A DNA stretch of 64,000 bases from the sequence record OR896830.1; one strand, written 5' to 3'. Below the pieces are notes generated by a model. It was not told the origin of the DNA and did not search any database. It saw only the letters and a list, made by a program, of their open reading frames with translations. A program made the translations under genes and the position numbers. Shown in pieces: positions 20,426-60,363 of the stretch. How positions within the stretch are numbered: the first letter of the stretch is position 1; each line of letters starts with the position of its first letter. Origin of the DNA: Escherichia phage LinBro.

Positions 20426-20435
20426 TTTCTTTACA

Positions 20436-20455
20436 GGGGCTGTATAGCCCCTTTT
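20436..20455 (+). terminator. putative terminator/attenuator between tail fibre genes
   Basis: GGGGC-tgtata-GCCCC hairpin followed by TTTT. Confidence 0.5.
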
Positions 20456-37826: not shown

Positions 37827-38082
37827 TAGTTATAAAAGAGAGGGGTTCACACCCTTCTTTGAAGAAAAAAGTTTAAATAAATTTCAGGAAGAGTGTTTGA
37901 CAAAGATTGATAGACTCTATAGAATGCTCCTCATGAAATGCGATGGAGAGGTTGAGATAAAAGAAGATTTTCACCAGAGCATGATTACAGTCATCATTGC
38001 GCTGCCTCAGCATAATATTAGTTGGCTGTTTATAATTAAAGAAAATGTGTTTGAATATCAAGTATATCGGAGAATATCATGA
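37789..38082 (+). CDS. hypothetical protein
   Basis: 97 aa ORF overlapping the end of the primase-helicase gene; start uncertain. Confidence 0.3.
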   Translation: MRMQMTAHSKLSDSYKREGFTPFFEEKSLNKFQEECLTKIDRLYRMLLMKCDGEVEIKEDFHQSMITVIIALPQHNISWLFIIKENVFEYQVYRRIS

Positions 38083-38228: not shown

Positions 38229-38235
38229 TTAGTAT

Positions 38236-38264
38236 TTGACAATAGAGTATCAACAAACTAGAAT
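38236..38264 (+). promoter_or_regulatory. strong sigma70-type promoter (TTGACA-N17-TAGAAT)
   Basis: Read directly; 37 bp upstream of SSB-like gene. Confidence 0.6.
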
Positions 38265-49421: not shown

Positions 49422-49430
49422 AACTTGACA

Positions 49431-49469
49431 AGGTGATGTGGGTCTTGATAGGCTTACATCACCTTTTTT
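49431..49469 (+). terminator. rho-independent terminator after nrdD
   Basis: 9-bp stem AGGTGATGT/ACATCACCT with 16-nt loop followed by TTTTTT. Confidence 0.55.
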
Positions 49470-51235: not shown

Positions 51236-51556
51236 ATGAGCAAAGTTTATAACACTCGTAAATTACAGATTTTCGTACTGTGCCAGTTTATGGCTAAAGA
51301 GTATAACTACTACTACTGTGGTACAGGGTTCATCAGCGATGATGACGGTTCATACCTACCATTTAAAGAAGCTGTGAAGCTCTTTAATGAAGAGAAAAAC
51401 TCTAAGAAAGATATTGAAAAGGTTAAGCTAACCTACAGCAAGAAAGATAAGAAGATTATCTGCCTAGATAACTTTGTAAAAGTTACTGGAGAAGCAAAAG
51501 AGTTTATGGATGAGAGTGAGATTTCATTCACAAGCATCTTGAAAGTAGCTCAGTAA
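51236..51556 (+). CDS. hypothetical protein
   Basis: 106 aa ORF. Confidence 0.3.
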   Translation: MSKVYNTRKLQIFVLCQFMAKEYNYYYCGTGFISDDDGSYLPFKEAVKLFNEEKNSKKDIEKVKLTYSKKDKKIICLDNFVKVTGEAKEFMDESEISFTSILKVAQ

Positions 51557-51567
51557 ACAGATACTAT

Positions 51568-51598
51568 AAGGGAACTGTAAAGGTTCCCTTTTTATTTT
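51568..51598 (+). terminator. rho-independent terminator
   Basis: AAGGGAAC-tgtaaag-GTTCCCTT hairpin followed by TTTATTTT. Confidence 0.65.
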
Positions 51599-53295: not shown

Positions 53296-53787
53296 ATGAA
53301 TAAGGGTTATTTTGAAAGATACCTAATATATGAACCAGATACAGGTTTATTAATTTGGAGAGTAACCCTTTGCAGTACCGCTATTGCTGGTAATGTGGCT
53401 GGCACAAGGTCTAAGAAGGGTTATATCCAAGTCCAGATAAATAAGAAGAGGTACTATGCACATAATATTGCATGGATTATGTCTGGAGGTGAGATACCAA
53501 GTGGATATGAGATAGACCACATAGACCTTGATAAATCTAATAATAAGTTGGAGAATTTAAGACTTAGCACAAAGTCACAAAATCAGAGGAATAGGGGTAT
53601 ATACAAGAATAATAAAACTGGTGTGAAGGGTGTAAGTTTTTGTAAACAAACAGGTCTTTACAAAGCAAGAGTCATGCTTTACCATAAAGAATACTTTTGT
53701 GGAAGATTTAAAACGGTAGAAGAAGCAAAAGAAGCTGTAATTAAAAAGCGAATAGAACTTCATGGTGAGTTTGCAAGACATAACTAA
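53296..53787 (+). CDS. free-standing HNH homing endonuclease with AP2-like DNA-binding domain
   Basis: YEIDHIDLDKSNNKLENLRLSTKSQN HNH_3-like motif followed by GVKGVSF...GLYKARV...FKTVEEAKEA AP2-like segment. Confidence 0.65.
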   Translation: MNKGYFERYLIYEPDTGLLIWRVTLCSTAIAGNVAGTRSKKGYIQVQINKKRYYAHNIAWIMSGGEIPSGYEIDHIDLDKSNNKLENLRLSTKSQNQRNRGIYKNNKTGVKGVSFCKQTGLYKARVMLYHKEYFCGRFKTVEEAKEAVIKKRIELHGEFARHN

Positions 53788-53801: not shown

Positions 53802-55583
53802 ATGAGTAAGTCACTTTACGCAGTACCAGCAGGTCTTAATGCAGATGCTTACAAGGCATCACATATATATCAGTATCCAGATGCTACGCAATATCTTATG
53901 TTGAACCTGACACCACGTAGTGATAAATGGTTTAACAGCCCCTTAGCAATTGACGGTGTAGTAGCTTTTGGTATTCAACGTTTCGTTAAAGATTACTTGA
54001 TAGACCATTGGAATGCTACGTTCTTTGAACGTGACAAAAAAGAAGCAATTGACGAAATCTTAGAAGTCATGAATGGTGTTCTGGGCAAAGATGCTATCGG
54101 TCGAGAGCATTGGGAGGCACTTCACGACTTAGGTTATCTACCAGTTGAAGTATACGCTGTAGAAGAAGGCACAGTTGTCCCTATGCGTGTTCCGATGATT
54201 GTTTTCCAGAACACTGTTTCAGGTTTCCATTGGGTAGCAGGTTATCTGGAAGATGCTTTCTCTGCTGAGATTTGGAAGGCTTGTACCATTGCAACTATTG
54301 CATTGCACTACAAACGTATCTGTAAGAAGTGGGCTGACCTTACTTGTGACAACGACTTGCATTTGCCTTATCAGTGCCATGACTTTGCTATGCGTGGTAT
54401 GTCCGGCTTTACTGATGACGCATTTAACGCTGTAGGCCACTTAACCAGCTTTAAAGGAACTGATAGCTTCCCTGCTGTGTATACGGCTAAACGAATCTAT
54501 GGACAGTCCTACCCAATCTCTGATATTGGTAGCTCTGTACCAGCCACTGAGCACTCTGTAATGTGTGCAAACATTGCTTGGGAAGGTGGTAATGAGTTGA
54601 TTGAAGAAGAAAGACGCTTTAAAGGTGAGTTACAGACCTTCCGTCGTTTCTTAACAGAAACTTACCCAACTGGTATTGCAAGTATTGTTTCAGACACTTA
54701 TAACTTCTGGAGAACTGTGTCAGAAATCTTACCAGCACTTCGTAAAGAAATTATGGAACGTGATGGTAAGCTGGTAATTCGCCCTGACTCTGGAGACCCT
54801 GTACATATTGTCACAGGCTATAAAGCAATCCACTTAGAGTGTGCTAAGAAGGCTTATTATGAGCACCTAAGCAAGCTGGAAGCTAGTGACACAATGTTGA
54901 ATGCTGTTCTGAACATGAAGCTTGAAAACATCAACTATGGTATTGCTGGATGGCTACTGTCAGAAGGCTACGAAATGGTTGTTGACAGAGAAGACTTTGA
55001 AGTTGCTGATACAGTGATGTTGAAAAATGCTTATATGGTTGGCTCTGCAAACGTTGTAACACGTCCTGTAGCAGAGATTGATGGAGCTATTAAGACCCTG
55101 TACAACATCTTCGGAGGGACTATTAACTCTAAAGGGTTTAAGGTACTGGATGAGCACATCGGCCTTATCTATGGTGACTCTATCACGCTGGAACGTGCAA
55201 ACGAAATCCTGAAGCGTCTGTATGAAATGGGTTTTGCAAGCTCTAACGTAGTGTTTGGTGTAGGCTCTTACACTTACCAGTACATGACTCGCGACACCTT
55301 TGCATTTGCTGTCAAAGCAACTCTTGCAAGCATTGGTGGTAAAGAGATTATGCTTGCAAAAGACCCTAAAACAGATAGTGGTGTTAAGAAATCTGCCTTT
55401 GGTGGTGTAGCACCTATGTGGGATGGTGATAAGCTGAAAGCTGTAGATGGCTATGGATTCCAGAGTTTTGCAGATGTACTTGACCACCAAGCTTGTGCTT
55501 TACGTTTAGTCTTTAGCGACTCTGAGCAGTTCGGTTATACAACTCTTGGAGATATTCGAAATAATATTGACAAGCAGCTTTAA
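53802..55583 (+). CDS. nicotinamide phosphoribosyltransferase (NAMPT/NadV)-like protein
   Basis: N-terminal ADAYKASHIYQYPDAT resembles the NAMPT signature (DxYK..H..QYP); 593 aa. Confidence 0.65.
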   Translation: MSKSLYAVPAGLNADAYKASHIYQYPDATQYLMLNLTPRSDKWFNSPLAIDGVVAFGIQRFVKDYLIDHWNATFFERDKKEAIDEILEVMNGVLGKDAIGREHWEALHDLGYLPVEVYAVEEGTVVPMRVPMIVFQNTVSGFHWVAGYLEDAFSAEIWKACTIATIALHYKRICKKWADLTCDNDLHLPYQCHDFAMRGMSGFTDDAFNAVGHLTSFKGTDSFPAVYTAKRIYGQSYPISDIGSSVPATEHSVMCANIAWEGGNELIEEERRFKGELQTFRRFLTETYPTGIASIVSDTYNFWRTVSEILPALRKEIMERDGKLVIRPDSGDPVHIVTGYKAIHLECAKKAYYEHLSKLEASDTMLNAVLNMKLENINYGIAGWLLSEGYEMVVDREDFEVADTVMLKNAYMVGSANVVTRPVAEIDGAIKTLYNIFGGTINSKGFKVLDEHIGLIYGDSITLERANEILKRLYEMGFASSNVVFGVGSYTYQYMTRDTFAFAVKATLASIGGKEIMLAKDPKTDSGVKKSAFGGVAPMWDGDKLKAVDGYGFQSFADVLDHQACALRLVFSDSEQFGYTTLGDIRNNIDKQL

Positions 55584-55597
55584 AAGTATATGATAAG

Positions 55598-55619
55598 AGG
55601 CTCCTACGGGAGCCTTTTT
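55598..55619 (+). terminator. rho-independent terminator
   Basis: AGGCTCC-tacg-GGAGCCT hairpin followed by TTTTT. Confidence 0.65.
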
Positions 55620-55636
55620 AATTTCTGGAGAAGATT

Positions 55637-55972
55637 ATGAAAATCAAAGAAATGAACATTAACGTTGTCCTAGAAGAACGTTGGGAGAACATTAAGAAAC
55701 CTGAAGATGGTAAAAAGTTCCTTAACAAAATTTTAGTAGCAGCTAAAGAAGAACTGACTGGCAAGATTGCAGCAGCAATCACAATAAAAATCTGTGTAAA
55801 AGGTCTTCCACAACATCACCAATTTGCACTTGACGAGTTTAAAGAAAGCTTCTACAATCCAAACAAACAGATGCTTGAAAGTAACTTTGCAGTGTCTACA
55901 AGTATCGTCCATGACAGAAGCTTTATCCTTTACAAGAATATGAGAGGTGAGTCATGCAAGCATATTGGATAG
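55637..55972 (+). CDS. hypothetical protein
   Basis: 111 aa ORF. Confidence 0.3.
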   Translation: MKIKEMNINVVLEERWENIKKPEDGKKFLNKILVAAKEELTGKIAAAITIKICVKGLPQHHQFALDEFKESFYNPNKQMLESNFAVSTSIVHDRSFILYKNMRGESCKHIG

Positions 55973-56130
55973 AAATTTTACTGTCACTTGGTAGTGTAGC
56001 AGTATTTGTTTACCTTCTTTGCAAGTACTATGCAGAGCACAAGAAGTGTGATTACTGCAACGGGGAAGGGTACACAAGAGCAGGTTGTTGCCCTATTTGT
56101 GGTGGTTCTGGTAAAATGTTTAATAAGTAA
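55954..56130 (+). CDS. small membrane protein with DnaJ-type zinc finger (CxxCxGxG x2)
   Basis: 58 aa ORF below track cutoff: N-terminal TM helix then CDYCNGEG...CPICGGSG. Confidence 0.35.
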   Translation: MQAYWIEILLSLGSVAVFVYLLCKYYAEHKKCDYCNGEGYTRAGCCPICGGSGKMFNK

Positions 56131-56158
56131 TTTAACAGTAAACTAAGAGGAAAGTATT

Positions 56159-58525
56159 ATGCGCATGGTAAATGACCACGCAGAAGTGATTAAGAGTTCA
56201 ACTTCTTTGGAGACATCTCAAGCACAGATTACAATGACACCTGAAATGTTCAGCCTTCTGAGTTCTGGTGTATACACATTCAAAGAAAGGGCAGTGATTC
56301 GTGAACTGTCATGTAATGCAGTAGATGCTCAGAAAGAAGCTGGAAAAGAGAACATCCCATTCCATGTGCATTTACCTACTCGATTTGAGCCTTACTTTGA
56401 AGTCCGTGACTTTGGAACTGGTTTAACCCATGACAAAGTAATGAGTTTGTACCTGAACTATGGGGCTTCTACGAAGAATGACTCTAATGATTACATTGGT
56501 GCAATGGGTATCGGCTCAAAATCACCATTTGCAATTGCTCAGTCATTCACAGTGTCTAGCTATGTTGATGGTGTTGTTAATAAGTACTCTGTTTACCTTG
56601 AGAATGGTATACCTCAAGTAACTAAGCTTACTACTAACCCAACAAATGAACCCAATGGTTTAGCTGTACGTGTGGCAGTTGCTGACCACCGTATTTCAAA
56701 GTTCTTTGAAGAGGCTGGTCATGTATACTCATACTTTGCTGTAAAACCAGAAAGTAACATTGTATATGATGATGTGTTAGCAGATATGAACGTCATTGCT
56801 CGTGAAGAAGGTGTTTATGATGCCATGATTCATAAGCAAAGCTGGCGTTCTAGTGGTAACAGGACGGAGTTTAATGTGGTGATGGGTAATATTGCCTATC
56901 CAGTGAACATGGAAGCATTACTTGGTGATGATTTCTTCAAAGTCTTGCCAGAGTTTTTCCGTAGGAGCGTAGACCTTGTAAACATTTACATGCCTATTGG
57001 TTCAGTCGCTATTGCAGCTTCTCGTGAAGCATTGCAGATGAATGATACGACAAAAAATGTTATCATTGAGGCTACTAAAAAGATAACTGAAGCAATTACA
57101 AAGGATGTTATCAAGAAAGTTAATAGCCAACCTACACTCATGGATGCTGCACAGGCTTATGCTGAGTTACGTTTGAACTCACGAGAGATGTTTAATGCTG
57201 TGTGTCCAAAGTTAGAGTGGGGAGGCGTTAAGCTTGATTCTTTGGAAGAAGAATTACTAAACATTCGTCGTGGGATTATCTACGCAGAAGACGGCTCAGT
57301 CATTTATGAACGTGACGGCAAAGGTAATATTAAGGTTGACAGTAAAGGAAACAACATTCCTAAAGTGGACTACCTATACAATCCAGTTGCTTATGTTAAG
57401 TTCAACTCTTTAGAGAGTAAGATTCGTGCAACAGCACTTTCCTACACTCAAGAGGCGAGCATGTTCAATATCTTTGGTGCAATGCGTAAAAGCCAAATTG
57501 AACAGTTTTTGTTCGTGATTAATGACCGTCGCAATAAAAACGGTACTGAAAAGACTGTAGGCCGCAATCAGATTCTGCGTGGTGCATGTCGAGACTACGC
57601 CAGTGAGTCAAGTCTGTTTCACAGATATAATGGTATTGTGTTTGTATTCTCGACTGAAAAAGAGTTAGACGACCTAATCAATCTACACAAACTTGATAAA
57701 AGCTTGTTAAAGATTGTGAAAATGTCTGATAAGGAGCACCATTACCAGCGCAAAGAAGCTGTAAGGGGTGTTGTAAAACTCTGGAAAGCTGTTCCAGCAG
57801 AAGGTGTAGCTTCCTATAAAGAGGTTTCAGAGGACTTTGATACAATTGAAGAACCTCAGCTTTACATTAAGGCAGTTGGTGACACAGTTGATGGCGAATG
57901 TTTTTGCTCATCTCCAGAAGATGTAGCTAAGTCAGTCGCTAATGTTCTAGGGAAGACAGTCTATGTTTTCCGAAAAGCAAATTGGAAAAAGATACCAGAA
58001 GACTGGATTGAAGTAGATGAGAAGCTCTTGAACGACAGCTTAACTGATGTTCACTGGATTAATCATAACAGGTATATGACACGTATCTATATGAATGGTG
58101 TTCTTGACCTTACAAGCAGTTGGATTATCACCAGAAACTTTACATTCAATAACAGGAAGATTTCTCGTGGTTATTGCTATTCACGAGATACTAACAAAAC
58201 TATCTTCCTAGAAGGCAATGAAGATGCTGTAGAGGCAATGTTCGGTAAAATCCAATACGTTGCTGCACCATTTGCATACACTTATACTGTTAGTGTATTG
58301 AAAACTTTGAAAGACTGTCTTGACAATGATACAAAGCTTTACAAGAAAATTAAGAAAGCTGGTGACCGCATGGTCATTAAGGTGACAAACTACCTTTCAA
58401 AAAGAAAACAAGAAAACTTCTTGCTTTCTCATTTAGATTGGAATAAAGTGTCGCCTATCGAAGTGAGTAAGTTCTTAGGCTTTGATGTGAAGTGTGTTCC
58501 AGAAGGGACTACAATTTACGATTAA
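56159..58525 (+). CDS. rIIA: rIIA-like protein with N-terminal GHKL (Bergerat-fold) ATPase domain
   Basis: ATPase motifs IRELSCNAVDA (N box), VRDFGTGL (G1), GAMGIGSKS (G2); 788 aa followed by rIIB-sized ORF. Confidence 0.6.
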   Translation: MRMVNDHAEVIKSSTSLETSQAQITMTPEMFSLLSSGVYTFKERAVIRELSCNAVDAQKEAGKENIPFHVHLPTRFEPYFEVRDFGTGLTHDKVMSLYLNYGASTKNDSNDYIGAMGIGSKSPFAIAQSFTVSSYVDGVVNKYSVYLENGIPQVTKLTTNPTNEPNGLAVRVAVADHRISKFFEEAGHVYSYFAVKPESNIVYDDVLADMNVIAREEGVYDAMIHKQSWRSSGNRTEFNVVMGNIAYPVNMEALLGDDFFKVLPEFFRRSVDLVNIYMPIGSVAIAASREALQMNDTTKNVIIEATKKITEAITKDVIKKVNSQPTLMDAAQAYAELRLNSREMFNAVCPKLEWGGVKLDSLEEELLNIRRGIIYAEDGSVIYERDGKGNIKVDSKGNNIPKVDYLYNPVAYVKFNSLESKIRATALSYTQEASMFNIFGAMRKSQIEQFLFVINDRRNKNGTEKTVGRNQILRGACRDYASESSLFHRYNGIVFVFSTEKELDDLINLHKLDKSLLKIVKMSDKEHHYQRKEAVRGVVKLWKAVPAEGVASYKEVSEDFDTIEEPQLYIKAVGDTVDGECFCSSPEDVAKSVANVLGKTVYVFRKANWKKIPEDWIEVDEKLLNDSLTDVHWINHNRYMTRIYMNGVLDLTSSWIITRNFTFNNRKISRGYCYSRDTNKTIFLEGNEDAVEAMFGKIQYVAAPFAYTYTVSVLKTLKDCLDNDTKLYKKIKKAGDRMVIKVTNYLSKRKQENFLLSHLDWNKVSPIEVSKFLGFDVKCVPEGTTIYD

Positions 58526-58530
58526 AGTGT

Positions 58531-58560
58531 TTGACAAGGGGCTTTGAAGCCCCTTAGAAT
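58531..58560 (+). promoter_or_regulatory. sigma70-type promoter (TTGACA-N17/18-TAGAAT) with hairpin in spacer
   Basis: Read directly; spacer contains GGGGCT-ttga-AGCCCC hairpin; between rIIA and rIIB. Confidence 0.5.
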
Positions 58561-58604
58561 AGCATCACAAAATGATTTATTAACTAACAAGAGAGAGTAA
58601 TAAG

Positions 58605-59714
58605 ATGACTACTAAAACTAAAGCACAGATTGACGCAGAAATTTACAAACTGGTTAAAGAAGGTAAGCTGACTAAAACAGCTATTGCACAGAAATTTAAT
58701 ACTTCAACCCGTTCAGTTGGTCGTGCTGTAGAGCGTCATGAAGCAACTTTAAAAGGGGATAAGAAGGCAACTTCTACACCAGCTACGAAGACTTTGAAGC
58801 AAGTTGCTAAGACATTTAAAAAGAAAGCTGACAAACCAGTTGAAAAGGTCGTTAAAGATGCTGTACAGAAAGCTCCGGTAAATAAACTGCATGAAGCTAT
58901 GCAGAAAGATGACAAGATTGAGTACATGATTACTGGTGACTCTGTAATTATGACTTATGGTTCAGAATCTGAAATTGTTGAGTCTACTCATCCGAACTAT
59001 CAAGAGATTGTAGTTCATGTTGTGAAAGGTGAGTTCAAAAAAGCCTTTGAATTGATGAACATTCGTAAGTCTATCGAAAACTTCACTCAGGGCGCTATCA
59101 CAATCAAAGGTGACAAGTTATTCTACGGTGCTGTTGAGATGCGTTCTACTCTGGTTGACCGTATTCTTCACATGATGAAGACTGGAGATAAAGGTTTCGA
59201 ACGCCTTGTGATGTTCTTCGAAAAACTGATGGAAAACCCATCTAAAGACTCTGTAGAACAACTTTGGGGCTTCGTATCTCACCTTGATGTTGAAATTGAT
59301 GAAGAAGGCTACATCATTGGTTGGAAGAAAGTATCTACTCGTGAAGGCAAGCTGGTTGACTCCCACACCTACAGAGTACCTAATGATTTGGGTAACATTG
59401 TAGAAATGCCACGTTGGATGGTTGATAATAACCGTAACGTGACTTGCTCTCAAGGTCTTCATGTTGGTGCTTGGGATTATGTTCGTTGCTTCTCAGGTGA
59501 TACAATTCTGAAGGTTCGTGTCCATCCACGAGACGTTGTATCCGTACCAACTGATTACAACGATATGAAGATGCGCTCGTCTCGTTATGAAGTTGCAGCA
59601 ATCGTTGATAATCAACGTAAAGTACTGAAAGCATGGGATGGCAAGACTGAAGCTTTGCATGTCATCGTTGGCACTGCTGGGGAACTTATCTCTCAGCGTA
59701 AACGTGAAATCTAA
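58605..59714 (+). CDS. rIIB: rIIB-like protein
   Basis: 369 aa ORF immediately downstream of the rIIA-like gene (conserved pairing); no independent motif. Confidence 0.45.
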   Translation: MTTKTKAQIDAEIYKLVKEGKLTKTAIAQKFNTSTRSVGRAVERHEATLKGDKKATSTPATKTLKQVAKTFKKKADKPVEKVVKDAVQKAPVNKLHEAMQKDDKIEYMITGDSVIMTYGSESEIVESTHPNYQEIVVHVVKGEFKKAFELMNIRKSIENFTQGAITIKGDKLFYGAVEMRSTLVDRILHMMKTGDKGFERLVMFFEKLMENPSKDSVEQLWGFVSHLDVEIDEEGYIIGWKKVSTREGKLVDSHTYRVPNDLGNIVEMPRWMVDNNRNVTCSQGLHVGAWDYVRCFSGDTILKVRVHPRDVVSVPTDYNDMKMRSSRYEVAAIVDNQRKVLKAWDGKTEALHVIVGTAGELISQRKREI

Positions 59715-59730
59715 TAAGTAATTTCTTAAA

Positions 59731-59753
59731 AGGCTGCTTCGGCGGCCTTTTTT
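59731..59753 (+). terminator. rho-independent terminator
   Basis: AGGCTGC-ttcg-GCGGCCT hairpin (one G-U pair) followed by TTTTTT. Confidence 0.6.
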
Positions 59754-59754
59754 A

Positions 59755-59783
59755 TTTGTATTTTGTGCAGAGTGCTGTATAAT
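59755..59783 (+). promoter_or_regulatory. putative promoter (TTTGTA-N17-TATAAT)
   Basis: Consensus -10 TATAAT at 59778-59783 with weak -35; upstream of secreted transglycosylase gene. Confidence 0.35.
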
Positions 59784-59814
59784 TGTTTTCACGATAAACT
59801 AAACAGGAGAACCA

Positions 59815-60363
59815 ATGAAGAAATTGATTCTAGGTTTGTGCTTAATGTTTACAGCACACTTATCTTATGCAGTTGACTGCCCAGAGCTATCAATTAGCCA
59901 AAAAGTAAACATGTTAAAAGCTTACCAGTATGGTGAGAATAACATGGGTAAAGGTTGGGGTATCACTCTAGCTGCTATAGCCTTACAAGAGTCAGAGTTA
60001 GGTCTGAAGGTAGAGAATAAAAAGACCCATGACTATGGTATCTTCCAGAATCACTTGAAGACTGTTGTAAAGCGTAACAAAATTAGTCCTAATGTGGCTA
60101 AAAAGAAACTCTTAAAAGACTTTGACTATGCTGCGAAGGAAACTCACAAAGAGCTTGAGTTTTGGACAAAGGTGCATGGTCAGCCAAAGTCAAAGAAGAC
60201 TTTACAAAAAGTTTTAGCATCATATAATGCTGGGTATTCGTACAGAATCCCTAAAGCTAAGAAATATTCTCAAGATGTCTATAACAACATGAAAGTTATT
60301 GCTCAATGTGAATTTGCAACAAACATTTCTAAGGTAAACCATGAAAAAATTAAAAAAGTCTGA
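59815..60363 (+). CDS. secreted lytic transglycosylase (SLT domain) with signal peptide
   Basis: Signal peptide MKKLILGLCLMFTAHLSYA; SLT motifs ALQESELG (catalytic E-S), GIFQ, SYNAGYS. Confidence 0.55.
   Translation: MKKLILGLCLMFTAHLSYAVDCPELSISQKVNMLKAYQYGENNMGKGWGITLAAIALQESELGLKVENKKTHDYGIFQNHLKTVVKRNKISPNVAKKKLLKDFDYAAKETHKELEFWTKVHGQPKSKKTLQKVLASYNAGYSYRIPKAKKYSQDVYNNMKVIAQCEFATNISKVNHEKIKKV

Follow-up and report, generated by a model that had tools for sequence, protein, structure and literature searches.

The closest described counterparts of the element considered here, the short gap between rIIA and rIIB of Escherichia phage LinBro (GenBank: OR896830.1), are the promoter-early stem-loops (PeSLs) of phages RB49 and phi1, in which sigma70 promoters are combined with stem-loops of the form Gn-loop-Cn, situated most often between the hexamers at -35 and -10 (Arbiol et al. 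2010, PMC2839356). Reporter constructs demonstrated both strong promoter activity and termination for these elements (PMC2839356), and PeSL variants are also described for PST/T4 and nt-1/KVP40 (Comeau et al. 2014, PMC4122927). The rII region of LinBro extends over positions 56159-59714 on the + strand of the 64-kb stretch of DNA that was analysed (the window, to which all positions refer unless stated otherwise).

Concerning the genes on both sides of the gap, knockdown of rIIA or rIIB in SUSP1 and in four other phages lowers plating on hosts with lambda RexAB (PMC11879866). SUSP1 is described as related to Salmonella phage Felix O1 (PMC11879866), and we take it to be an Ounavirinae phage, i.e., a member of the same subfamily as LinBro. 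For Bas63 (Felixounavirus), a genome-wide knockout screen found that the RIIA/B genes 85/84 counter QatABCD (PMC11482910), and transposon screens of T4 and Bas37 found the same conditional essentiality of the rII genes (bioRxiv 10.1101/2025.11.20.689424). The rIIA protein of T4 is described as membrane-associated (PMC4837284).

We read the LinBro locus as an rII module with a bifunctional signal in the gap, comprising a promoter of its own for rIIB and an attenuating hairpin in the spacer of this promoter, and assign to this reading a probability of roughly 0.7. With the PeSLs, the junction shares a near-consensus sigma70 promoter (TTGACA-N17/18-TAnAAT) together with a Gn-loop-Cn stem-loop, the position of this stem-loop between -35 and -10, which is that of the commonest PeSL subclass, and its delimitation by an upstream stop codon and a downstream Shine-Dalgarno (SD) sequence and ATG. 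As among PeSLs, other registers are found in relatives of LinBro, in which the hairpin covers or follows the -10 hexamer.

There are, however, clear differences: Whereas PeSLs occur in about 50 copies per genome, LinBro possesses a single spacer-type copy in 64 kb, and a blastn-short search with the intergenic region found no second copy but only promoter words of 10-12 nt. Two or three junctions combining a promoter and a terminator exist in the window; their sequences are unrelated and lack the similarity of about 100 bp that is found between PeSL copies. The LinBro element is situated at a conserved, core-like junction and not beside ORFans in hyperplastic regions, and LinBro belongs to the Ounavirinae, unlike the T4-like PeSL phages. 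The junction also exhibits no sign of recombination, since a comparison of identities between the last 1.2 kb of rIIA and rIIB in 30 related loci revealed no discordant mosaics; the same comparison shows that rIIA evolves faster than rIIB. By analogy, we consider the LinBro element to work like a PeSL but to be a fixed, vertically inherited junction signal, not a mobile cassette. The signal in the gap adds a new example to a regulatory design already known, and our literature search yielded no paper that describes a PeSL-type composite in Felix O1-like phages.

The putative promoter and the hairpin at the rIIA/rIIB junction

An original prediction, made from the sequence of the window, had placed a promoter with the hexamers TTGACA and TAGAAT and a spacer of 17 or 18 nt between the two genes. 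Both hexamers are present, with a consensus score of 11/12, and the spacer comprises 18 nt and not 17 (Table 1). From the stop codon of rIIA onwards, the sequence reads TAA-AGTGT-TTGACA-AGGGGCTTTGAAGCCCCT-TAGAAT, and all related loci have kept the purine-rich SD-like tract further downstream, in the form AAGAGAGAG or AAAGAGAGA. The same site is annotated as a promoter, by pattern, in GenBank record MZ726791. The signature AGTRT-TTGACA-N17/18-TAGAAT is found at three sites of the window (37892-37925, 38231-38264, and 58526-58560, with TTGACA at 37897, 38236, and 58531), and all three exact TTGACA...TAGAAT pairs of the window are intergenic and situated upstream of + strand genes; these sites may form a distinct class of strong promoters in LinBro.

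The element is kept in all of 30 closely related loci from IMG/VR and GenBank (rIIB identity 76-100%; hereafter the close set), where the -35 hexamer is TTGACA in all but one, which has TTGACT, and the -10 hexamer is TAGAAT or TAAAAT. The Mooglevirus and Suspvirus-like clade, which is the more distant part of this set, has one A fewer, such that its spacer has the optimal length of 17 nt. TTGACA followed after 17 nt by TAGAAT, TAAACT, TTAAAT, or TCTAAT is kept in lineages with only 48-59% protein identity, as seen in locus L035 (TTGACA-AGGGGCTGCAAAGCCCC-TAGAAT; rIIA 53% identity), L036 (TTGACA-AGGGGTGTAAAAGCCCC-TAAACT; rIIA 48% identity), L033 (Yersinia phage P778; TTGACA-N17-TTAAAT), and L031 (TTGACA-N17-TCTAAT; rIIB 59% identity). 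The promoter is real and conserved as a pair of hexamers, from which we infer promoter activity. The rIIB transcript would start near A58567, about 38 nt before the ATG, and would begin downstream of the hairpin with a leader of 38 nt.

One might suppose instead that the -35/-10 match is unused, that rIIA and rIIB are co-transcribed, and that the hairpin, together with the hexamer-like sequences at its flanks, represents a degenerate terminator, retained solely to attenuate. The AT-rich genome contains many promoter-like matches (46 vs. 35 expected in 14 kb by consensus scan), L037, L038, and L040 are without a clear TTGACA at the junction, and the genome paper of Felix O1 lists no promoter there (PMC3185647). 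The hexamers are nearly invariant, however, while neighbouring non-coding bases vary; they recur with a 17-nt spacer at 48-59% protein identity, also in lineages with a displaced hairpin, and two further intergenic gene starts carry the same pair with the AGTRT prefix. Furthermore, reverse transcription PCR (RT-PCR) in Felix O1 found a maximum at 10 min for ORF2 (rIIB) and at 25 min for ORF1 (rIIA) (PMC3185647, Table 3), and these different peak times are consistent with separate control of the two genes. An unused promoter appears highly improbable to us.

Concerning the hairpin, a GGGGCT/AGCCCC stem had been proposed to lie inside the spacer. It does so and is longer than proposed, with 8 bp (AAGGGGCT/AGCCCCTT), such that its outer pairs reach into both hexamers, with the -35 contributing its last base and the -10 its first. 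Among 135 promoter-like sites of the window, this is the only spacer hairpin of at least 7 bp, the next best having 6 bp. A search for the 18-mer with up to 3 mismatches resulted in 4 matches over both strands at two loci, compared with about 0.02 expected from shuffled sequences; the second of these loci is a terminator hairpin at 20435-20452 (stem AGGGGCT/AGCCCCT), which is followed by a T-run and lies outside any promoter. The free energy (dG) of the spacer stem is -12.5 kcal/mol, with intergenic hairpins of the window ranging from -11.7 to -23.1, and in a context of 45 nt it amounts to -16 (z = -2.9). An Rfam search of 55500-60000 (E<=1) gave four sub-threshold matches, none of them at the spacer hairpin, which is hence not a described RNA family.

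Within the close set, the stem GGGGCT/AGCCCC is invariant save for a single G-to-A change in two loci. A stable hairpin exists at the junction in 9 of 10 lineages examined and in L031, with at least five other stem sequences (L031, L033, L036, L037, L038, L039), and it is kept in relatives down to about 35-40% rIIA identity. L031 has a different hairpin (AAGTGGTC...GGCCACTT) over the -10 hexamer, and in L033 a stem of 11-15 bp (GTGGCTGAGGG/CTCTCAGTCAC) encloses the -10. Stable hairpins are also found in L037 (GGTGGTC/GGCCACC), L038 (GTGGTGGC/GCCACCAT), and L039 (GGGGTG/CACCCC), where the -35 is weak or absent, and at the junction of L040 no hairpin was found. The register of the hairpin relative to the promoter varies accordingly: It lies in the spacer, around the -10, or at junctions with no clear promoter. 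In five lineages, the pairs of the stems that are not Watson-Crick are G.T on the + strand; the reverse type is confined to a recent variant in L002 and L030. Such sense-strand wobbles fit a structure acting in the sense RNA, i.e., in transcripts that arrive from the rIIA side.

The loop (58544-58547 in LinBro) is dimorphic among Felixounaviruses (L001-L032): 16 loci have TTGA and 10 have TCAA. Both loops are exact reverse complements of each other and occur on three flanking haplotypes, with no single-substitution intermediates; rather than point mutation, this dimorphism resembles the outcome of repeated inversion of the loop through hairpin-mediated template switching.

The palindrome AAGGGGCT-N4-AGCCCCTT could also be regarded as a double-stranded DNA operator, at which a dimeric protein, possibly rIIB via its helix-turn-helix (HTH), represses the rIIB promoter in the sense of autoregulation or temporal shut-off. 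Sequence-specific recognition would give the near-invariant stem that is found in the 30 Felixounavirus-like loci and in L035, while loop and flanks vary, and the promoter spacer is a classic repressor position. In addition, the HTH of rIIB is confidently modelled, DeoR/KorA/NarL-like and conserved including T4, with an invariant R40, and some rIIB homologues match HTH Pfam families. On the other hand, distant relatives change the stem sequence and keep the pairing, which fits a folded RNA better, and the hairpin shifts relative to the hexamers or persists without a clear promoter (L037, L038). The mismatches are the sense-strand G.T pairs, which an RNA tolerates but which would matter in a symmetric duplex operator; the near-identical hairpin at 20435-20452 precedes a T-run and forms no part of a promoter; and the structural matches of the HTH are statistically weak (E ~1). 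We know of no DNA-binding activity of rIIB, which, to our knowledge, has for 70 years been known only as the membrane-associated partner of rIIA. An operator of any kind is very unlikely, and a slighter chance still is given to the narrower claim that the palindrome is bound by rIIB's own HTH, in which case rIIB would also be a DNA-binding autoregulator and one sequence could be read both as hairpin and as operator.

With regard to termination, the spacer hairpin is similar in length and stability of its GC-rich stem to the canonical terminators of LinBro (59728-59757, 55595-55618, 20435-20452), whereas it has the -10 hexamer where their T-run would stand. With the -10 hexamer in the place of the U-tract and a weak T-tail, leaky termination and/or protection of the 3' end is to be expected, not a full stop. 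A classical intrinsic (Rho-independent) terminator was considered and rejected: The stem is appropriate, but the U-tract is missing, as judged from the tail score and the terminator scan. We predict that the hairpin attenuates read-through from rIIA rather than terminating it fully. The original prediction had proposed that termination of rIIA transcription could be coupled to initiation of rIIB. This remains plausible in view of the conserved design and the match with PeSLs (PMC2839356), but since the hairpin has no U-tract, an attenuator is likelier than a terminator.

Several observations weigh against an attenuating hairpin and a separate promoter. The d'Aubenton-Carafa-type T-tail score of the hairpin is 1.8, compared with 3.1-6.8 for the T-run terminators of the window; after the GC core follows UUAGAAUAG, with only UU before AGAAU and no U-tract; and the terminator scan of the window did not call the hairpin, such that termination at this site may be negligible. 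The stem never varies in Felixounavirus and close genera, hence no compensatory changes are provided by this clade, and the covariation argument rests on distant lineages, for which the hairpins are taken to be positionally homologous. The GC-rich spacer of 18 nt is sub-optimal for sigma70, and the end-point RT-PCR timing in Felix O1 (PMC3185647) is coarse.

The poor U-tail and the missing call in the terminator scan would suit a further alternative, in which the promoter works and the hairpin exerts neither termination nor attenuation but is a 3'-end stabiliser, an RNase III/E processing site on read-through RNA, or a GC-rich spacer tuning promoter strength. Stability and sense-strand wobbles argue for a role in RNA, not specifically for termination, and phage mRNAs commonly carry protective 3' hairpins. 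Against this stands the analogous PeSL stem-loop, which cut expression of a downstream reporter as strongly as rrnB T1 (PMC2839356); furthermore, the equivalent hairpin of L039 is followed by TTTT, which suggests terminator ancestry. A hairpin without any attenuation is, in our view, unlikely.

If the hairpin attenuates, as we prefer to assume, the 79-nt gap would constitute one compact bifunctional signal. The promoter TTGACA-18-TAGAAT would supply the rIIB transcript, whereas the hairpin would be transcribed only by polymerases coming from the unit that precedes it (promoter 55567, two small ORFs, and rIIA). On this read-through RNA, it would act as a leaky terminator or attenuator and as a protective 3' end, and it would shield the rIIB promoter against transcription from upstream. 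Expression of rIIB would be partly independent of rIIA, and the unit would end at 59728-59757. Attenuation and insulation are here deduced from sequence features.

The rIIA and rIIB proteins

The two open reading frames (ORFs) of the original prediction are both contained in the ORF list, and the search against rIIA and rIIB profiles that it had suggested matched PHROG 612 and PHROG 609, respectively. For rIIA, the match to PHROG 612 "RIIA" (E=6e-189, residues 1-770 on profile positions 1-716 of 725) bears out the proposed identity. The N-box, G1, and G2 motifs of GHKL proteins, likewise proposed, can be read in the translation, and their residues either never vary or are conserved to at least 90% across 38 rIIA homologues with identities down to 23% (alignment A1). 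A profile of A1 matches the N-domains of TRAP1/Hsp90/HtpG with E=2e-5, with N-box and G1 aligned (IRELSCNAVDA in rIIA and IRELISNGSDA in TRAP1; DFGTGL and DTGVGM, respectively), and Pfam HATPase_c_3 is matched by 15 of the 38 homologues. LinBro rIIA alone resulted in only a sub-threshold Pfam match (HATPase_c, E=0.22), and a single-sequence search of the PDB yielded no match.

An AlphaFold2 (AF2) model of rIIA built from A1 has a mean predicted local distance difference test (pLDDT) of 85. The 50 best PDB matches of this model in Foldseek all belong to the Hsp90 family (E 2e-15 to 3e-12, 557-776 aligned columns) and are full-length or N- plus middle-domain proteins, not the ATPase domain alone. 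By its motifs, profile match, and model, rIIA is a Bergerat-fold protein of Hsp90-like type, with a predicted Hsp90-type middle domain, and not MORC-like or topoisomerase-like; the original prediction had named assignment to another GHKL family with no rIIB downstream as the outcome that would speak against it, and the searches returned neither. As rIIA carries catalytic-type residues for ATP binding and hydrolysis, it is a putative ATPase. In comparison with the Hsp90 family (TRAP1, HtpG, Hsc82, Grp94), N-box and G1 align and the model spans about 560-780 columns, whereas identity is 10-14% and the global TM-score about 0.3, such that the domain arrangement of rIIA is different or uncertain. 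There is no evidence of a chaperone function, and rIIA works with rIIB.

The second ORF, described originally as rIIB-sized, proved to be rIIB. It matches PHROG 609 "RIIB" with E=1e-88 and shares 36.5% identity with T4-type rIIB over residues 11-339 (tblastn, E ~1e-50), and Pfam PF26926 (Phage_T4_rIIB) is carried by a 98%-identical cluster representative as well as by all other rIIB homologues. LinBro rIIB itself is not matched by PF26926 in the local Pfam copy, where it gave sub-threshold matches only (HTH_Tnp_ISL3, E=1.3e-3), and a single-sequence PDB search resulted in matches at chance level. In the AF2 model (pLDDT 83; HTH part >90) and in an alignment of rIIB homologues including T4-type rIIB (alignment A2), the protein consists of a three-helix HTH, a disordered linker rich in K and A, and a conserved C-terminal domain. 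The HTH is conserved throughout the family, including T4-type rIIB, with R40 invariant in A2. It resembles the DNA-binding domains of DeoR, KorA, and NarL with Foldseek probabilities of 0.8-0.97, but with E ~1, and several rIIB homologues match HTH Pfam families. For the C-terminal domain, Foldseek found no significant PDB match. Compared to T4, LinBro rIIB is longer owing to the linker (369 aa vs. 312 aa of the T4-type rIIB in L034), and rIIA and rIIB are set apart by the regulatory gap of 79 nt.

The PHROG 609 profile, with 1055 positions, consists of two parts, of which positions 31-299 match the GHKL domain of rIIA and positions 755-1048 match rIIB, which points to fused rIIA-N/rIIB proteins in some phages.

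The original prediction had regarded the pair as a candidate anti-defence locus. This is right, but such a role has already been published for close relatives (PMC11879866, PMC11482910). By analogy with the same genus (Bas63) and the same subfamily (SUSP1), the rII pair of LinBro may rightly be considered an anti-defence module, which would protect infection from abortive-infection or membrane-depolarising defences (RexAB, QatABCD), as in these related phages.

Gene order and flanking transcription signals

LinBro is a phage of the Felixounavirus type (Felix O1-like myophage). A megablast search with 56159-59714 matched 277 phage records, 210 of them with at least 80% query coverage and most with 90-99% identity, the best match being rIIA/rIIB of vB_EcoM-VpaE1 (97.3% at the nucleotide level). 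Nearly all of these records belong to Felixounavirus-type phages of Escherichia, Salmonella, Shigella, or Citrobacter, and rIIA and rIIB are annotated under the match; to many annotated genomes, the region shows 95-97% nucleotide identity. The gene order, consisting of a PRPP-synthetase-like gene, NAMPT, two small ORFs, rIIA, rIIB, an SLT-like protein, and PseT kinase, is the standard of the genus, without material difference from vB_EcoM-VpaE1, Felix O1, UAB_Phi87, and Bas63, and rIIA is situated directly upstream of rIIB in every relative fetched. The locus represents the Felixounavirus ortholog of the rIIA-rIIB module; the gene pair is already annotated in hundreds of genomes and functionally studied, and is not new.

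Table 1. Features of the rII region of LinBro and of its flanking signals (positions in the window)
Feature	Position	Strand	Description and source
Upstream composite signal	55567-55618	+	Promoter TTGACA-16 nt-TATGAT (55567-55594), then terminator hairpin (55595-55618) and T-run
rIIA gene	56159-58525	+	788 aa, ATG start; PHROG 612
Bergerat-fold ATP-binding motifs	56303-56521	+	N-box, G1, and G2, from translation
N-box E49-L-S-C-N53-A-V-D56	56303-56326	+	Translation
G1 D84-F-G86-T-G88	56408-56422	+	Translation
G2 G114-A-M-G117-I-G119-S-K121	56498-56521	+	Translation
rIIA stop codon	58523-58525	+	
sigma70-type rIIB promoter	58531-58560	+	-35 TTGACA 58531-58536, -10 TAGAAT 58555-58560; score 11/12
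Promoter spacer	58537-58554	+	18 nt
GC-rich hairpin AAGGGGCT-TTGA-AGCCCCTT	58536-58555	+	8-bp stem, loop TTGA 58544-58547, fills spacer; core GGGGCT 58538-58543 pairs with AGCCCC 58548-58553
Shine-Dalgarno-like purine-rich tract AAGAGAGAG	58589-58597	+	7 nt upstream of rIIB ATG; sequence read
rIIB gene	58605-59714	+	369 aa, ATG start at 58605; PHROG 609
rIIB three-helix HTH	58620-58754	+	Residues 6-50; AF2 model, alignment A2
rIIB disordered K/A-rich linker		+	Residues 53-91, ~40 residues; together with HTH 58620-58877; AF2 model, alignment A2
Conserved rIIB domain		+	C-terminal to K/A-rich linker; alignment A2
Intrinsic terminator AAAAGGCTGC-TTCG-GCGGCCTTTT	59728-59757	+	With T-run; closes rII unit; terminator scan

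Upstream of rIIA, a composite signal follows NAMPT. Its promoter scores 11/12, with the -35 lying in the coding end of NAMPT, and its hairpin (dG -16.6, z = -3.6) was called in the terminator scan. The arrangement of a promoter followed by a hairpin after NAMPT is kept in seven relatives, including L033, L035, L037, L038, L039, and L041. This signal is likely to be the start of an orf111-orf58-rIIA unit, and thus the putative rIIA promoter, as well as the stop for NAMPT transcripts. In the consensus scan, no usable promoter was found between 55594 and rIIA; a promoter-like match at 56132-56160 overlaps the start codon of rIIA and therefore cannot serve this gene. A similar promoter/terminator junction exists at 51539-51590. 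At both junctions the promoter ends exactly where the terminator hairpin begins, such that transcripts would start inside the hairpin and escape it. In L041 (rIIA 63% identity; positions 1738-1801 of that locus), TTGACA-N18-TATAGT is situated upstream of rIIA and enclosed by a hairpin GTGGCA...TGCCAC. Composites of promoter and stem-loop thus recur as a design in the early region of the Felix O1-like group. A perfect TTGACA also stands directly before a 16-bp terminator hairpin with T-run at 49425-49465, where a -10 cannot be recognised at the appropriate spacing; this site may be a decayed composite or due to chance.

Downstream of rIIB, the terminator closing the rII unit (dG -14.7, z = -4.7, T-tail score 5.25) equals terminator t2 of Felix O1 (PMC3185647, Table 2). 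"Terminators" annotated in phage Tribble in the 3' end of rIIA (~58399-58428) are weak AT-rich stems in coding sequence and were not considered functional.

Between the PRPP-synthetase-like gene and NAMPT, LinBro possesses an ORF of 163 aa (53296-53787) with HNH_3 (E=2e-19) and AP2-like endonuclease domains. In Tribble, the PRPP-synthetase-like gene adjoins NAMPT without this ORF, which is probably a mobile homing endonuclease insertion.

Significance for Felix O1-like phages

As a discovery, the locus has little weight, as hundreds of genomes carry annotations of its genes and experiments on the same genus and subfamily have already addressed the anti-defence role. Real novelty would attach only to the reading in which rIIB binds the palindrome in its own promoter, which is unlikely. 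The predicted Hsp90-like fold of rIIA and the HTH of rIIB provide concrete handles on the biochemical mechanism of the rII proteins, and a separate promoter of rIIB would help operon annotation as well as the engineering of Felix O1-like therapeutic phages. Composites of the PeSL design also exist outside T4-like phages and are conserved at fixed junctions in Felix O1-like phages.

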